DNA of 64,000 nucleotides, taken from positions 8,552 to 72,551 of IMG/VR virus record IMGVR_UViG_3300020180_000017; one strand, given 5' to 3'. Below the pieces are notes generated by a model. That model was not told the origin of the DNA. It did no database searches and saw only the letters and a list, made by a program, of their open reading frames with translations. How positions within the stretch are numbered: the first letter of the stretch is position 1; each line of letters opens with the position of its first letter. Of this stretch, positions 32,135 to 61,944 are shown piece by piece. The position numbers and the translations under genes were made by a program. This DNA is from a virus.

Positions 32135-32153
32135 TTTATTTATTTAAGATTAG

Positions 32154-32224
32154 TAGAGCTATTAGGATTCGAACCTAAACTAATCGCTTAGAAGGCGATT
32201 TTGCATCCATTACAACATAGCTCT
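32154..32224 (-). tRNA. tRNA-Arg(UCU), no encoded CCA
   Basis: AGAGCTA/TAGCTCT acceptor stem, ATCGC-CTTCTAA-GCGAT anticodon arm, TTAGG-TTCGAAT-CCTAA T arm; weak D stem. Confidence 0.85.
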
Positions 32225-33048: not shown

Positions 33049-34278
33049 TTAAAAACAAACATTAAAAAAAGTTAGGAGTTCTTCTTTTTGTAAATTAGAA
33101 ATATTAATATTTTTGTTCTTATTTAGAAATATCATCCATTCAGATACTACTTTATTTACTTTCCAACTTTCAAAGTAATTTACAATAGTATTTTTAAATT
33201 GCTCTAAGTCAAGTTCTACTGCTTCTAACTCATTATACTCTAACCATTTAAATATTCTATTTTTAAATCTTTCACATCCTTTATACCCGTCATCTTTCCA
33301 TTTTCCACCTTCAAAATAATGATTAATAAACATCAAATACATTCTTAATGTTTGAGGATCGTAATCTATGGGGTTTACTGTATTATTAAGTGACTTACTC
33401 ATTTTATTACCATCCTCTCCTAATATCATCCCTTGATGTATTACTTTAAGGAATGGTTCATCAAAATCTATGTAACCTATATCAAATAAAAATTTAGTTA
33501 TAAACCTAGCATATATGAGATGCATACAAGCATGTTCATTTCCTCCAACATACAAGTCAACAGGTCTGTTTTTATCATATTCAATAGTATAAAAAGAACT
33601 ATCAACAAATGTATCTAAAGTATCTTCTTCTCCATTTACAGGTATTGAACACCCCCATTTTCTTTGCCTACTTACACACCAATCAGTTAAGTTATGTAGC
33701 CAATGTATTTGTTGTTTTTTAGTTTTTTCTGGGTAATCTACTTTGTCAAGGTCATTAATCAATCTTTCTTTGTAATCTGTAATTTTAAAAAACCACTGAT
33801 TTAATTCTTTTTTAATTACTTCAGTATTGCATCTTTCACATTTTTTATCTTTTACTTGTTCTTTAGCTAAAACAGTTTCACATGAAATGCAATAATCTTG
33901 TTCTCTATTAGCCTTATAAGCTAATCCATGATCTAATAGTTTATTGAATAACCACTGAGTTCTTTCTTGATATTCTTTAGAATGTGTTGAAAGTTTATAT
34001 TCAAAAGAAGTATTCATTCTTTCCATTTCTTTTGAAAAAGCCACTATATTTTCTTCAGTTATTTCTTTTGGATCTCTATTTACTTTTTTAGCGTAATTTT
34101 CTGTTGGAAGACCAAAAGCGTCAAAACCAAAAGGTTGAAATATTTCATAGCCTAAATACTTTTGTATTTTACAATAACTATCTACAATAGAATAATTATA
34201 GTAATGTCCTACGTGAAGATTTGCTCCACTTGGGTAAGGAAACATTACAGTTACATACTTATTTTCTTTTTTTATCAT
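33049..34278 (-). CDS. leuS: Minimal leucyl-tRNA synthetase (class Ia) lacking editing and C-terminal domains
   Basis: MFPYPSG-x2-LHVGH (HIGH), FDAFGLP, CxxC...CxxC ZN1, DWCVSRQRKWG, DTLDTFVDSS, EHACMHLIYARF, KMSKS. Confidence 0.92.
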   Translation of the reverse strand: MIKKENKYVTVMFPYPSGANLHVGHYYNYSIVDSYCKIQKYLGYEIFQPFGFDAFGLPTENYAKKVNRDPKEITEENIVAFSKEMERMNTSFEYKLSTHSKEYQERTQWLFNKLLDHGLAYKANREQDYCISCETVLAKEQVKDKKCERCNTEVIKKELNQWFFKITDYKERLINDLDKVDYPEKTKKQQIHWLHNLTDWCVSRQRKWGCSIPVNGEEDTLDTFVDSSFYTIEYDKNRPVDLYVGGNEHACMHLIYARFITKFLFDIGYIDFDEPFLKVIHQGMILGEDGNKMSKSLNNTVNPIDYDPQTLRMYLMFINHYFEGGKWKDDGYKGCERFKNRIFKWLEYNELEAVELDLEQFKNTIVNYFESWKVNKVVSEWMIFLNKNKNINISNLQKEELLTFFNVCF

Positions 34279-55980: not shown

Positions 55981-56075
55981 AAGCAGGGTAGCTCACCCCT
56001 TGGAGGCCGTGCTTTGCCGCAGGGTAGTCTAATAGACCCCCGGTATCATTATTAATTTAAACGGGGGAGACCTCA
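55981..56075. promoter_or_regulatory. GC-rich structured element at the divergence point of the two transcription arms
   Basis: GCAGGGTAG occurs twice; GTCT-AAT-AGAC, CCCCCG/CGGGGG and GAGG/CCTC pairings. Confidence 0.45.
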
Positions 56076-59569: not shown

Positions 59570-59585
59570 ATAAATTTACACAAAT

Positions 59586-59684
59586 AGCGATGCTAGGTGG
59601 ATACAGGCTCATTACTTGTATAGGTTGTAAGAAGTAATAATGTAAAATTCTTATGACATGGGAGTTCGAGTCTCTCCGTCGCTA
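59586..59684 (+). ncRNA. tRNA-like RNA without D stem, with long extra arm
   Basis: AGCGATG/CGTCGCT acceptor + A, GGGAG-TTCGAGT-CTCTC T arm, 7-bp hairpin with CTCATTA loop, 10-bp extra arm. Confidence 0.7.
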
Positions 59685-59715
59685 CAAATAAATTAATAAT
59701 CTAAAACAAAACAAT

Positions 59716-60078
59716 ATGACACTAAAAGAATTTAAAGACTACATTAAGTCTTTTCCAAAAAACGCTGTGTTTAAATGTGGCATTTCTGAACCTTTCTCTT
59801 GGAGAGGTAGTTATGACGAAGTTGCTTTTTCCGTGGTAGAAAGCAGTATGGGTAAATCTGTAATACTAAAAAGAATTAATAAAGCATATACCGAAACTTT
59901 TTTTGGTTACAAAGGCGGTGCATATGAATATTCAGATCACACAACTGTAAATTTTGAAGAAGAAGGGAGCAGGAATTATTCAAATGGCAGATACACTGCT
60001 GAAATGATTTCTCAATTAGAAAATACAGAGCAATTTCTTAGTCAAGAAGAAAGACTTGTTAAATTAGCTTTTTGTTAA
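59716..60078 (+). CDS. Phage hypothetical protein (SWRGSY...FFGYKGG motif)
   Basis: 120-aa ORF with a motif pattern recalled from other phages. Confidence 0.65.
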   Translation: MTLKEFKDYIKSFPKNAVFKCGISEPFSWRGSYDEVAFSVVESSMGKSVILKRINKAYTETFFGYKGGAYEYSDHTTVNFEEEGSRNYSNGRYTAEMISQLENTEQFLSQEERLVKLAFC

Positions 60079-60084
60079 AACATT

Positions 60085-60393
60085 AAAATTAGTCTTGCTT
60101 ATAATAAACAGTGAGTGCTGATATGCCAAAGTGATTTAGTTCATGAGTAATAAACTTCAGTTGAAAATGAAACACTAACAGCTTGGATACTCCAAGTGCA
60201 TTACGAAGCTAATATAAAGGTTTAAACCTTTGCACAGGTTACGTGCTAAAGAGAGTAACAGAAATGAGTGTAATCACAATCTGCTAAAAGATGTTGTTTA
60301 TTATAAGGTATAAAATTTACTAGGCTCTTGTAACGAGTAAGTCTATCGTTAAATCCCTTATATGTAGCTTTAGCAACTACCAAGATTAATTTT
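60085..60393 (+). ncRNA. Large multibranch structured ncRNA
   Basis: 13-bp closing stem AAAATTAGTCTTG/CAAGATTAATTTT, 15-bp stem CTTATAATAAACAGT/GTTGTTTATTATAAG, and many inner hairpins. Confidence 0.6.
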
Positions 60394-60402
60394 TAAACTT
60401 AT

Positions 60403-60664
60403 AAACTATTGTGTAGAATGTAGGCTTGGAAGTAGCCATCATTTAAAGAGTTACGAGTTCAACAGAATTATTTATACTTCTATATAAATGATTACTGAAA
60501 TACGGTTCCTGAATTGACAGGGTGGAAACACAATCTCTATATTTGAGCAAGTTAGGTGGAACTATGGTTTTTGAAAACTTTAAAGATAGAAGTCAATAAA
60601 GAAAAATGTATAGGAGAAACAACCGTCAGAGTATTTGGTGTAACAACACACTTCACAATAGTTT
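60403..60664 (+). ncRNA. Mimic of the 23S rRNA L11-binding domain (GTPase-associated centre, H43/H44) with 186-nt insertion
   Basis: AGAATGTAGGCTTGGAAGTAGCCATCATTTAAAGAGT...GTGTAACAACACACT versus E. coli 23S 1054-1105; closed by AAACTATTGTG/CACAATAGTTT. Confidence 0.85.
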
Positions 60665-60700
60665 TATTATTTACTAATCAAAATGTATTTTTAGATTCAA

Positions 60701-60823
60701 GAGTTAAGTGGCGGAATTGGTATACGCAGTGGTATGTTAAATGTGGAAATAGACATAATTCCTAATCCTTTATAAGGACTATCTGCTTGTCTTTTACTGT
60801 AGGTTCGACTCCTACTTTAGCTC
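60701..60823 (+). ncRNA. tRNA-like RNA with Leu-type D arm and expanded, branched anticodon region
   Basis: AGTTAAG/TTTAGCT acceptor, TGGCGGAATTGGTATACGC D arm, GTAGG-TTCGACT-CCTAC T arm. Confidence 0.7.
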
Positions 60824-60856
60824 CAAATAAAAATAACAATTTAACAAACAATAATT

Positions 60857-61498
60857 ATGACAACTAAAACATTAAATGTAGTAATGATTGCTACTAATGA
60901 ATCAACTAATATAGTATTAAATACTATTAATAATAGATTGTTATTAGATAATGATAAAACATTAGTTGAAAGAATATTACCTATTCATGGAAAACATCAA
61001 CATTTATATTTTACAAGTGAGGATGAAATTCAAGATTTGGATAATTTTGGTATAACTATTCCTTTGTTGTTTATTAATGATAACAATTCAATAAAAGTAA
61101 TTACTTATTCAAATAAAAGAATTGGGGACTATTACGAAATCGAAGCTACAACAAATAAATCATTACAAGTTAATTGTGACGGTAAATGTGCTAAATATGA
61201 AGGTATTTGTTCATTTCCTCAAATACCACAATCATTCATAGAAGCTTATATTAAAGCTTATAACGAAGGTAATCCTATTTTAACAGTTGATGTTGAAACA
61301 GAAGAATATGATACTATAGTTAAAGATTTTAAAGATATTAGAATCAAAACTAATTCAGCTAATGAAGTTATTATTGTTGAACCTAAACTTTATACTAAAG
61401 GAGATTTAGTTAATTTTGGCAATGATGTATATTCTAAATTTACAAAAAACATATCAATGAATGATTTTGTCAACAATTGGATTGAAAACAATCTTTAA
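60857..61498 (+). CDS. Phage hypothetical protein
   Basis: 213 aa; QHLYFTSEDEI...PQIPQSFIEAY. Confidence 0.65.
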   Translation: MTTKTLNVVMIATNESTNIVLNTINNRLLLDNDKTLVERILPIHGKHQHLYFTSEDEIQDLDNFGITIPLLFINDNNSIKVITYSNKRIGDYYEIEATTNKSLQVNCDGKCAKYEGICSFPQIPQSFIEAYIKAYNEGNPILTVDVETEEYDTIVKDFKDIRIKTNSANEVIIVEPKLYTKGDLVNFGNDVYSKFTKNISMNDFVNNWIENNL

Positions 61499-61499
61499 A

Positions 61500-61905
61500 A
61501 GCGTTTCCTAAAGTGTTTAGTTGTAATTAAAATGGAATAGCTGACCAACTACGCAAGACAGCTCTGGTAACTGACTCTTAACTGAGAGGTTATTACTCAA
61601 GTGTCTATTCACGCAATGTTGAGTATTGGTATTACAATTAACTTCGATGGGTATTCCTATTACAGTATAAATTCTAATAGTTTAAGAAACTAACGCTGCT
61701 TCATTTTAGGAGCAAGGTATGATATAAAGATTTGTATGTGTATGCTTTCAATAGCAAGTAGGAACTATTATTACAATAAGGTCGTGATGACTATCAAGAT
61801 GAAAGTAATTAATTCATCAACGTGTAAATACTATTAATGTTTAGCAAGAAATAGTGTAGCAGTAAATAGATAAGTCCATAGTGAATACAGCGTTTATTGT
61901 AGTAT
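61500..61905 (+). ncRNA. Large structured ncRNA(s), two multibranch domains
   Basis: AGCGTT/AACGCT, TTAGTTGTAAT/ATTACAATTAA, TACTCAA/TTGAGTA, ATTACAATAAG/TTTATTGTAGT, GATGAA/TTCATC; no ORF of 60 aa or more. Confidence 0.5.
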
Positions 61906-61944
61906 TTTTTAAACATAATTAATAACAAACTAAAAACAAAAATT

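Follow-up and report, generated by a model that had tools for sequence, protein, structure and literature searches.

The ribosomal site at which translation factors bind has two rRNA parts, the GTPase-associated center (GAC) and the sarcin-ricin loop of 23S ribosomal RNA (rRNA); they are used by all translational GTPases and are classic targets of antibiotics and toxins. Mimicry of rRNA sites is known from the leaders of ribosomal-protein (r-protein) messenger RNAs (mRNAs), which regulate bacterial r-protein operons in cis and as a rule imitate the shape of the rRNA site rather than its sequence. Phages, for their part, frequently carry ROOL and GOLLD, long structured RNAs of unknown function that adjoin transfer RNA (tRNA) genes. 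Here, we analyzed a 64,000-nucleotide stretch of viral DNA (the window), which is the final 64 kb of the 72.5-kb IMG/VR virus record IMGVR_UViG_3300020180_000017, a record that CheckV estimates to be ~52% complete. On its plus strand, positions 60406–60661 encode a stand-alone structured RNA of 256 nt that reproduces the GAC. An earlier note, made from the letters of this DNA, had pointed to a 23S GAC mimic at this place and had set it within a 2.3-kb array of seven elements; the mimic was borne out and its case strengthened by a 29/32-base match to E. coli 23S rRNA, a helix-44 partner and a closing helix.

A split copy of the GTPase-associated center and its phage family

The element, delimited by rRNA similarity, motif and pairing, consists in order of a closing helix, a near-exact copy of helix 43, an inserted domain of 183 nt and a copy of helix 44. 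Positions 60418–60449 match E. coli 23S 1057–1088, i.e., helix 43 and the GAC junction, at 29 of 32 bases (E 6e-7, BLAST against one 23S gene), and the 778-nt gap between open reading frames (ORFs) in which the element lies matches the 23S gene over 60414–60451 in 5426/5426 complete E. coli genomes (BLAST). The similarity to rRNA is confined to ~36–40 nt by BLAST, and the large-subunit rRNA model RF02541 had no match at E ≤ 0.001 in the record of the window, compared with 13 of 14 control genomes. The helix-43 copy (60418–60442, E. coli 1057–1081) is a covarying hairpin with a 3+3-bp stem, internal mismatches and a 9-nt loop at 60426–60434, in which G60428 corresponds to 1067 and U60433 to 1072. 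It is followed by the junction TTAAAGAG (60443–60450, E. coli 1082–1089), of which GAG 1087–1089 is invariant in 35 lineages, and, beyond the inserted domain (60451–60633), by the helix-44 motif TTTGGTGTAACAACACAC (60634–60651). In this motif, 60638 pairs with 60647 (1091–1100) and 60639 with 60646 (1092–1099, a U-A pair), and A60642 corresponds to 1095. The closing helix stands in for helix 42 and pairs 60406–60416 with 60651–60661 at 10 of 11 positions. The copy is therefore not a contiguous three-way junction of ~58 nt: it is interrupted by the 183-nt insertion, and an unrelated helix replaces helix 42. Two helices of the inserted domain can be read from the sequence, P-a (60452–60454 with 60631–60633) and P-c (60502–60505 with 60623–60626), and a 14-bp AU hairpin lies at about 60463–60497. 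Because P-a and P-c have the same positions as the corresponding helices of cultured phages, with the same 4-nt spacing before the 3' strand of P-a, the insertion of the window is homologous to theirs.

An exact 28-mer from the helix-43 stretch was found in nine IMG/VR contigs of 33–186 kb, whose flanks do not align with the window; they have just ~40 nt in common with it, at 95–98% identity. Alignment of these loci revealed a second shared motif downstream, the helix-44 hairpin. It lies 109–387 nt past helix 43 in 24 of the 24 first-round loci that extend far enough, and in three enterobacterial-type phages the 10 bases at this position are those of E. coli 23S 1091–1100 without a mismatch. 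The set was widened by two pattern scans (a 15-mer and a 17-mer), which returned many chance or coding matches; these were culled by structural rules, namely the helix-44 motif, an upstream hairpin of 3 bp, 9-nt loop and 3 bp, the junction, and a closing helix with 6 or more of 8 pairs formed. One widening scan gave 63 new stretches that were mostly chance matches, 15 of them with family features; about 50 of the 101 new stretches of another were not family, many of them lying in one conserved protein-coding stretch. The 17-base helix-44 pattern recurs in such a conserved coding stretch of unrelated phage contigs (e.g., L235, L238 and L250). At least 60 loci pass the rules, including the window and one contig of a metagenome-assembled genome; one is a likely false call, which leaves 59 credible. 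The retained loci amount to 53 credible distinct RNAs with insertions of 87–628 nt that fall into 36 clusters of unrelated sequence. These counts are lower bounds, taken among the matches listed from pattern-biased scans, and the true number is larger.

The loci come mostly from phages of 100–330 kb. The core pattern turned up a single time among 32.2 million contigs of prokaryote genomes, so that the family is all but confined to phages; a metagenome scan with a G1067 pattern gave 115 stretches, all of them true 23S genes and none a family member. Cultured carriers are Cronobacter phage GAP32, Serratia phage BF, Pectobacterium phage CBB, Acinetobacter phage ME3, Ralstonia phage RSP15, Erwinia phage Kaldavass, six pEa_SNUABM phages, Xanthomonas phages XbC2 and XaC1, and Yersinia phages fHe-Yen9-03 and fHe-Yen9-04, with weaker matches in Prevotella Lak phages. 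They were found by searching GenBank phages with a short query at E 1; a 2.7-kb query at E 1e-5 gave none. In 9/9 inspected cultured-phage records, the annotation gives no RNA feature for the intergenic gap that holds the GAC RNA, and in Kaldavass a 31-codon ‘hypothetical protein’ has been called across part of it. The helix-44 pattern was single-copy in the five genomes tested (5/5), with no match for a reversed-pattern control. Separately, GenBank ‘phage’ records of 1.5–7 kb (Staphylococcus, Listeria, Escherichia, Salmonella, Klebsiella and Dickeya) match only via genuine 23S sequence and look like host fragments.

The pairing was assessed by covariation in three alignments. In 11 diverse members, scored over the closing helix, helix 43 and helix 44, 90.9% of the cells were paired and 13 of 19 pairs had changed on both sides, values reached by 0/500 shuffles on five measures; slid controls were 33–59% paired. 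All 11 pairs of the closing helix had changed on both sides in this alignment. In 35 representatives of insertion clusters, scored over helix 43 and the 1082–1086 pair, 98.4% of the cells were paired and 6 of 7 pairs had changed on both sides, with 0/500 shuffles on four of five measures and slid controls of 27–61%; the fifth measure, further pair types, was not significant (321/500 shuffles). The RNAs of nine cultured phages, whose structure adds insertion helices P-a to P-d (RNAalifold), were 97.6% paired with 21 of 38 pairs changed on both sides, with 0/500 shuffles on four measures, 8/500 on the fifth, and slid controls of 32–44%. The 1082–1086 column pair covaries (UA 28 and CG 4 among the representatives, UA 6 and AU 3 among the cultured phages). 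The helix-44 pairs are invariant and so show no covariation of their own in the alignments of 11 members and of nine phages. The aligned sequences are related, so that shuffle counts overstate their independence; stronger evidence comes from the slid controls and from the count of independent insertion clusters.

The changes extend to the tertiary fold. In 23S rRNA, G1071 and C1072 of the helix-43 loop form triples with the 1091–1100 and 1092–1099 pairs, and the 1072/1092–1099 triple together with loops 1065–1073 and 1093–1098 makes up the site of uL11 and thiostrepton, according to the accessible portion of one source (PMC8614978); a portion of a second states that uL11 binding requires the folded GAC (PMC6239185). 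Among the nine cultured phages, whose discovery by BLAST involved no pattern fixing 1072, 1092 or 1099, C1072 goes with C1092-G1099 in six and U1072 with U1092-A1099 in three. U1072 was likewise present in 32 of 33 loci found via a pattern that fixed U1092 only, compared with C1072 in 115/115 true 23S genes fetched from metagenomes, and the triple of the window is U/U-A. G1071, the 1091–1100 pair and G1087-A1088-G1089 are invariant across the family alignments; of the 53 distinct RNAs, 37 have G at position 1067, 14 have A and 2 have U. Covariation thus supports the GAC tertiary contact 1072/1092–1099, and selection appears, from these patterns of conservation, to act on the fold recognized by uL11 rather than on the factor-contacting tip of the loop. 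Two further candidates were rejected. A purine at 1061, considered as a stabilizing adaptation, is present (A or G) in 32 of 35 IMG/VR representatives but is U in 6 of 9 cultured phages. A copy of helix 42 inside the insertion was sought by BLAST of the nine cultured-phage RNAs against E. coli 23S, and apart from helices 43 and 44 there was no excess over shuffles (105 matches at E ≤ 1 in 180 shuffles).

Some insertions carry a second piece of 23S rRNA. In the first nine loci, the insertion includes a hairpin identical to E. coli 2653–2665, the sarcin-ricin loop, at 13/13 bases (L003; E 0.015 taken alone), and across the family a copy with at most one mismatch to a 12-mer occurs in 17 of 60 loci from at least three insertion clusters. 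One locus (L170) has two sarcin-ricin-loop-like 12-mers, 232 and 288 nt past the helix-43 core, one of which needs two mismatches. In the 64 kb of the window, the 12-mer had seven two-mismatch matches, none of them inside the GAC element. The recurrence of GAC and sarcin-ricin loop in one small RNA is the strongest hint of function: members with the sarcin-ricin copy would mimic both RNA halves of the factor-binding site.

The conserved association of the GAC RNA is with tRNA genes. Of 25 first-round loci, 21 have tRNAs on the same strand no more than 2.5 kb away, and in 9 a tRNA starts just a few bases after the closing helix, 15–18 nt past the helix-44 motif. In the window, the GAC RNA ends 40 nt before a tRNA-like element (not 36 nt, as the earlier note had it). 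The likeness to a processed polycistronic RNA that the note remarked on gains weight from other phages, in which the GAC RNA abuts true tRNAs within a few bases, and release from a polycistronic transcript by tRNA-processing enzymes is plausible given this arrangement. Odd tRNAs with two-base ‘anticodons’ (ARAGORN) adjoin the GAC RNA in L147, L180 and L184, and aberrant tRNA-like genes may be its regular companions. In Ralstonia phage RSP15, the gap that follows the GAC RNA holds a weak tRNA-like or transfer-messenger-RNA-like signal (L324, 1967–2033; 20.6 bits), and a tRNA-rich phage locus has a weak match to the Y RNA-like YrlA (L006, 9155–9267, minus strand; 33.8 bits against a gathering score of 69). 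A gene for uL11 was found in 0/10 carrier genomes (control 14/14 known genomes) and one for bL12 in 0/5 (control 10/14 known genomes); therefore any ribosomal-protein partner must be the host's.

Genes and noncoding stretches around the element

The window has a G+C content of ~28% and switches strand near 56000. Beyond this point, small plus-strand ORFs follow one another with tiny spacers, and three noncoding stretches lie in the gaps between them, at 59570–59715, 60079–60856 and 61499–61944. All six frames of the three gaps stay closed whichever single stop codon is reassigned, and an alternative genetic code was rejected for them on this ground. Both ORFs that the earlier note placed in its array are indeed open: 59716–60078 (+) encodes 120 aa of unknown function (phrog_12889; 138 homologues), and 60857–61498 (+) encodes 213 aa of unknown function (weak phrog_15656), with no close relative in a pattern scan of IMG/VR. 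A promoter/terminator scan found 10 promoter-like sites against 18.1 expected, with a consensus that may not suit the host, and no terminators. Elsewhere in the window, a normal tRNA-Arg lies at 32153–32224 (–), one of two tRNAs called there by ARAGORN at default settings, and a 408-aa ORF at 33049–34278 (–) is a truncated class I aminoacyl-tRNA synthetase, which the earlier note had named a minimal LeuRS; its matches are to the class I catalytic core only (Pfam tRNA-synt_1, 5e-38; tRNA-synt_1g, 4e-32).

Two tRNA-like elements were proposed for this region, and both are present but aberrant; the anticodons given by ARAGORN conflict. The upstream one (59586–59685, +) is reported by ARAGORN only with an intron or at a relaxed threshold. 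Its T-arm and its acceptor-like stem of 7 bp are well formed, but the anticodon-like stem, likewise of 7 bp, carries a loop of 14 nt; the variable region is long, and the minimum free energy (MFE) z-score is –2.4 to –2.6. No Rfam tRNA match was obtained at E ≤ 10, its T-arm and acceptor weakly resemble those of true phage tRNAs (nhmmer, E 0.004–0.2), and it is not credible as a decoder. The downstream one (60702–60823, +) scores 29.6 bits with the Rfam tRNA model RF00005, whose cut-off is 29, and the match includes an insert of 53 nt. Its acceptor, D and T arms are good, and it has a hairpin with a UAU anticodon and a 17-nt variable region; its folding energy is not significant (MFE z –0.14). 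An extra segment of ~35–50 nt resembles a duplicated 5' acceptor and D part, so that the element seems to hold alternative 5' acceptor and D-arm segments at 60702–60735 and 60737–60765. It is because of these alternative segments that the Rfam and ARAGORN readings conflict, ARAGORN reading a different, 90-nt tRNA-Ile(tat) at 60735–60824.

The two large structured RNAs of the earlier note, of 309 and ~400 nt, did not hold up as such. The stretches at 60079–60405 (+) and 61499–61944 (+) are noncoding, and no supported structure was found in the latter; the sole feature of the former is a perfect 13-bp inverted repeat (60098–60110 and 60295–60307, 184 nt apart). The folding energy of the 309-nt and ~400-nt stretches is not unusual (MFE z –0.75 and –1.09), nor is that of the whole gaps (778 nt, z +0.42; 446 nt, z –0.35). 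However, the folding-energy test is uninformative in such AT-rich DNA because the proven GAC RNA itself reaches only –1.45. Neither stretch had an Rfam match (E ≤ 10), a similarity to E. coli 23S or to metagenome loci bearing rRNA genes, or a homologue in any fetched locus.

Possible roles of the GAC RNA

For the GAC mimic, a decoy or sequestration role, as the earlier note proposed, is a reasonable inference; the binding of Rel or of defense nucleases by the RNA elements is speculation. On the reading we regard as best, and as somewhat probable from sequence comparison, the GAC RNA would bind host uL11 and serve as a decoy of the factor-binding site away from the ribosome. It would be transcribed with the neighboring tRNA or tRNA-like genes, freed by tRNA-processing enzymes and folded into the GAC tertiary structure, in which form it could bind host uL11. 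Off the ribosome, the resulting particle would mimic the site at which translation factors dock, and as such a decoy would draw off a protein that targets the ribosomal GAC, be it a host toxin, a defense effector or a GTPase; alternatively, the RNA might titrate uL11 itself. In vitro, EF-G is bound by isolated oligonucleotides of the sarcin-ricin loop and of the thiostrepton domain, and among bacterial toxins there are some that modify helix 44 or cut the sarcin-ricin loop. The GAC core also often tends, by sequence type, to resemble the GAC of the likely host: phages of the enterobacterial type have the E. coli loop together with the 10-mer in helix 44, and G1067 and the helix-44 loop of the window equal those of G1067-type true 23S genes from metagenomes. 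ME3 and Yen9-04, which lack an E. coli-type loop, are exceptions. A host-like core would imply co-evolution with a host protein partner.

Several observations weigh against the decoy. The folding energy of the GAC RNA is unremarkable (MFE z –1.45), the copy in the window carries no sarcin-ricin loop, and the insertion sits in the junction beside A1088, where it might disturb the tertiary fold. The tip of the helix-43 loop, 1067–1070, which contacts factors and thiostrepton on the ribosome, is variable across the family, and therefore a partner that reads these bases is not universal. The choice among a toxin decoy, a uL11 sponge and a factor trap is, moreover, one of inference only. A more ambitious version of the decoy, which we put forward tentatively and consider doubtful, is that the GAC RNA of large phages, loaded with host uL11 and in some lineages joined by the sarcin-ricin loop, forms a miniature replica of the factor site off the ribosome, and that this replica captures proteins which dock there. 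If this were true, translational GTPases, RelA-type sensors and ribosome-directed immune toxins would be candidates for capture, and the phages would have an RNA-based route to protect or reprogram host translation.

The same conservation can be read in terms of uL11 alone. An abundant RNA might compete for exchangeable uL11, leaving uL11-poor ribosomes that fail in RelA activation, which depends on uL11, and thereby blunting (p)ppGpp. The invariance of the nucleotides that build the uL11-binding fold, amid helices that covary freely, speaks for such a sponge, as does the lack of a detected uL11 gene in the 10 carrier genomes; but the sequence gives no pointer to RelA, 17 of 60 loci carry a sarcin-ricin-loop module that a sponge does not explain, and it is doubtful that uL11 could be removed from assembled ribosomes within one infection cycle, so that we find this explanation unlikely. 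A cis-acting leader, i.e., an r-protein-style mimic in the 5' untranslated region (UTR) of the downstream gene that senses uL11 or a thiopeptide, has the known precedent of rRNA-site mimicry in mRNA leaders in its favor, and compact 58-nt GAC copies in three viral contigs do precede a hairpin, a Shine-Dalgarno-like site and a small ORF. The split-GAC family element, however, has its own closing helix; in 9 of 25 loci the next feature, a few bases on, is a tRNA rather than an ORF, in the window a tRNA-like gene begins 40 nt downstream, and promoter-like and terminator-like signals are not enriched. For the family, a leader is thus highly improbable. Compact, uninterrupted GAC copies of ~58 nt were observed outside 23S genes in the viral contigs L013, L015, L017, L016 (2627–2653) and L014 (1080–1106); in three prophage-like contigs, where the small ORF is hydrophobic, this arrangement suggests a leader. 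In L016, the 1091–1100 pair is swapped from G-C to A-U, and in L014 a T-arm-like hairpin directly follows the compact copy.

Debris, either a piece of host 23S rDNA acquired by illegitimate recombination or a chance similarity, might be suspected since just ~40 nt resemble rRNA by BLAST and small GenBank ‘phage’ records do contain true 23S fragments. Against this, helices 43 and 44 are always both present at distances of 87–628 nt and closed by a covarying helix, the core is invariant amid unalignable flanks across 36 insertion clusters, and compensatory changes extend to the tertiary triple; refuted by the covariation counts, this explanation retains next to no probability. There remains the proposal of the earlier note that the whole 2.3-kb stretch is a coordinated array of translation-apparatus mimics, its five RNA elements being functional and linked. 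All elements share one strand in a gene-sparse stretch, and the cultured carriers show similar mixtures of small ORFs, tRNAs and GAC RNA. Homologues of the ORF at 59716–60078 are present in 25 viral loci, however, and within 3.5 kb of them the GAC RNA (helix-43 or helix-44 motif) was found in 0/25, as was any detectable homologue of the upstream tRNA-like element or of the 309-nt or ~400-nt stretch. The sole match was a weak one on the minus strand to the downstream tRNA-like element (nhmmer, E 0.0065), and only 2 of the 25 loci had any tRNA. Because these loci lack the GAC RNA and credible noncoding matches, the ensemble is not a conserved unit, and the co-occurrence on which a seven-element system would depend fell away in this comparison. 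With the two large ‘RNAs’ also lacking homologues in the family loci searched and significant folding, we consider a coordinated array very unlikely.

Comparison with known systems

The GAC-mimic RNA belongs to a large, apparently undescribed family of phage RNAs. A phage-encoded mimic of the GAC or of the sarcin-ricin loop is not described in the full-text literature searched, a body that does not extend to subscription journals and supplements, and the genome papers on carrier phages turned up by this search do not mention 23S rRNA. We know of no earlier trans-acting mimic of an rRNA domain, and the phage GAC RNA would to our knowledge be the first. It would point to an unrecognized point of conflict or control at the base of the ribosomal stalk, a question that is directly testable because Cronobacter phage GAP32, Serratia phage BF, Pectobacterium phage CBB and Acinetobacter phage ME3 are cultured carriers whose hosts are tractable. 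For studies of RNA folding and of uL11 recognition, the family in addition offers dozens of naturally occurring GAC variants with insertions.

Like phage tRNA arrays and the RNAs associated with them, the GAC RNA lies in a tRNA region. Unlike ROOL and GOLLD, neither of which it matches in Rfam, the family is defined by an rRNA-derived core; in Rfam 15 (4227 models), the GAC element was unmatched in the window at E ≤ 10, in L003–L011 at E ≤ 0.1 and in six cultured-phage loci at E ≤ 1. With r-protein mRNA leaders (e.g., Rfam L10_leader) it shares the principle that a non-ribosomal RNA mimics an rRNA protein-binding site. Unlike them, it is a separate RNA set among the tRNA genes of phages, and no r-protein gene was found near it: a tRNA or tRNA-like gene follows it, so that it does not stand in the 5' UTR of an r-protein gene, and none of the Rfam searches of the element returned a leader family. 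Pseudo-ToxI of phage PhiTE, as far as the available part of its description goes, is likewise a phage non-coding RNA that copies a host or cellular RNA, but it is a mimic of an antitoxin RNA, whereas the GAC RNA copies a domain of the ribosome (PMC3475682).

The closest likeness is to the ribosome itself. As in the sarcin-ricin loop (helix 95), 17 of 60 insertions hold a hairpin with a 12–13-nt copy of E. coli 2653–2665; unlike in 23S rRNA, where the two elements are ~1600 nt apart, the hairpin is fused to the GAC copy in a small RNA. Relative to the 23S GAC (helices 42–44, E. coli 1051–1108), the phage RNA keeps the 9-nt loop of helix 43, the 1082–1089 junction, the helix-44 loop, the 1091–1100 pair and the covarying 1072/1092–1099 triple. 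It differs in lying outside rRNA, in the replacement of helix 42 by a freely varying helix of 8–11 bp, in the folded domain of about 70–600 nt between the junction and helix 44, and in being encoded by a phage, once per genome, among tRNA genes.

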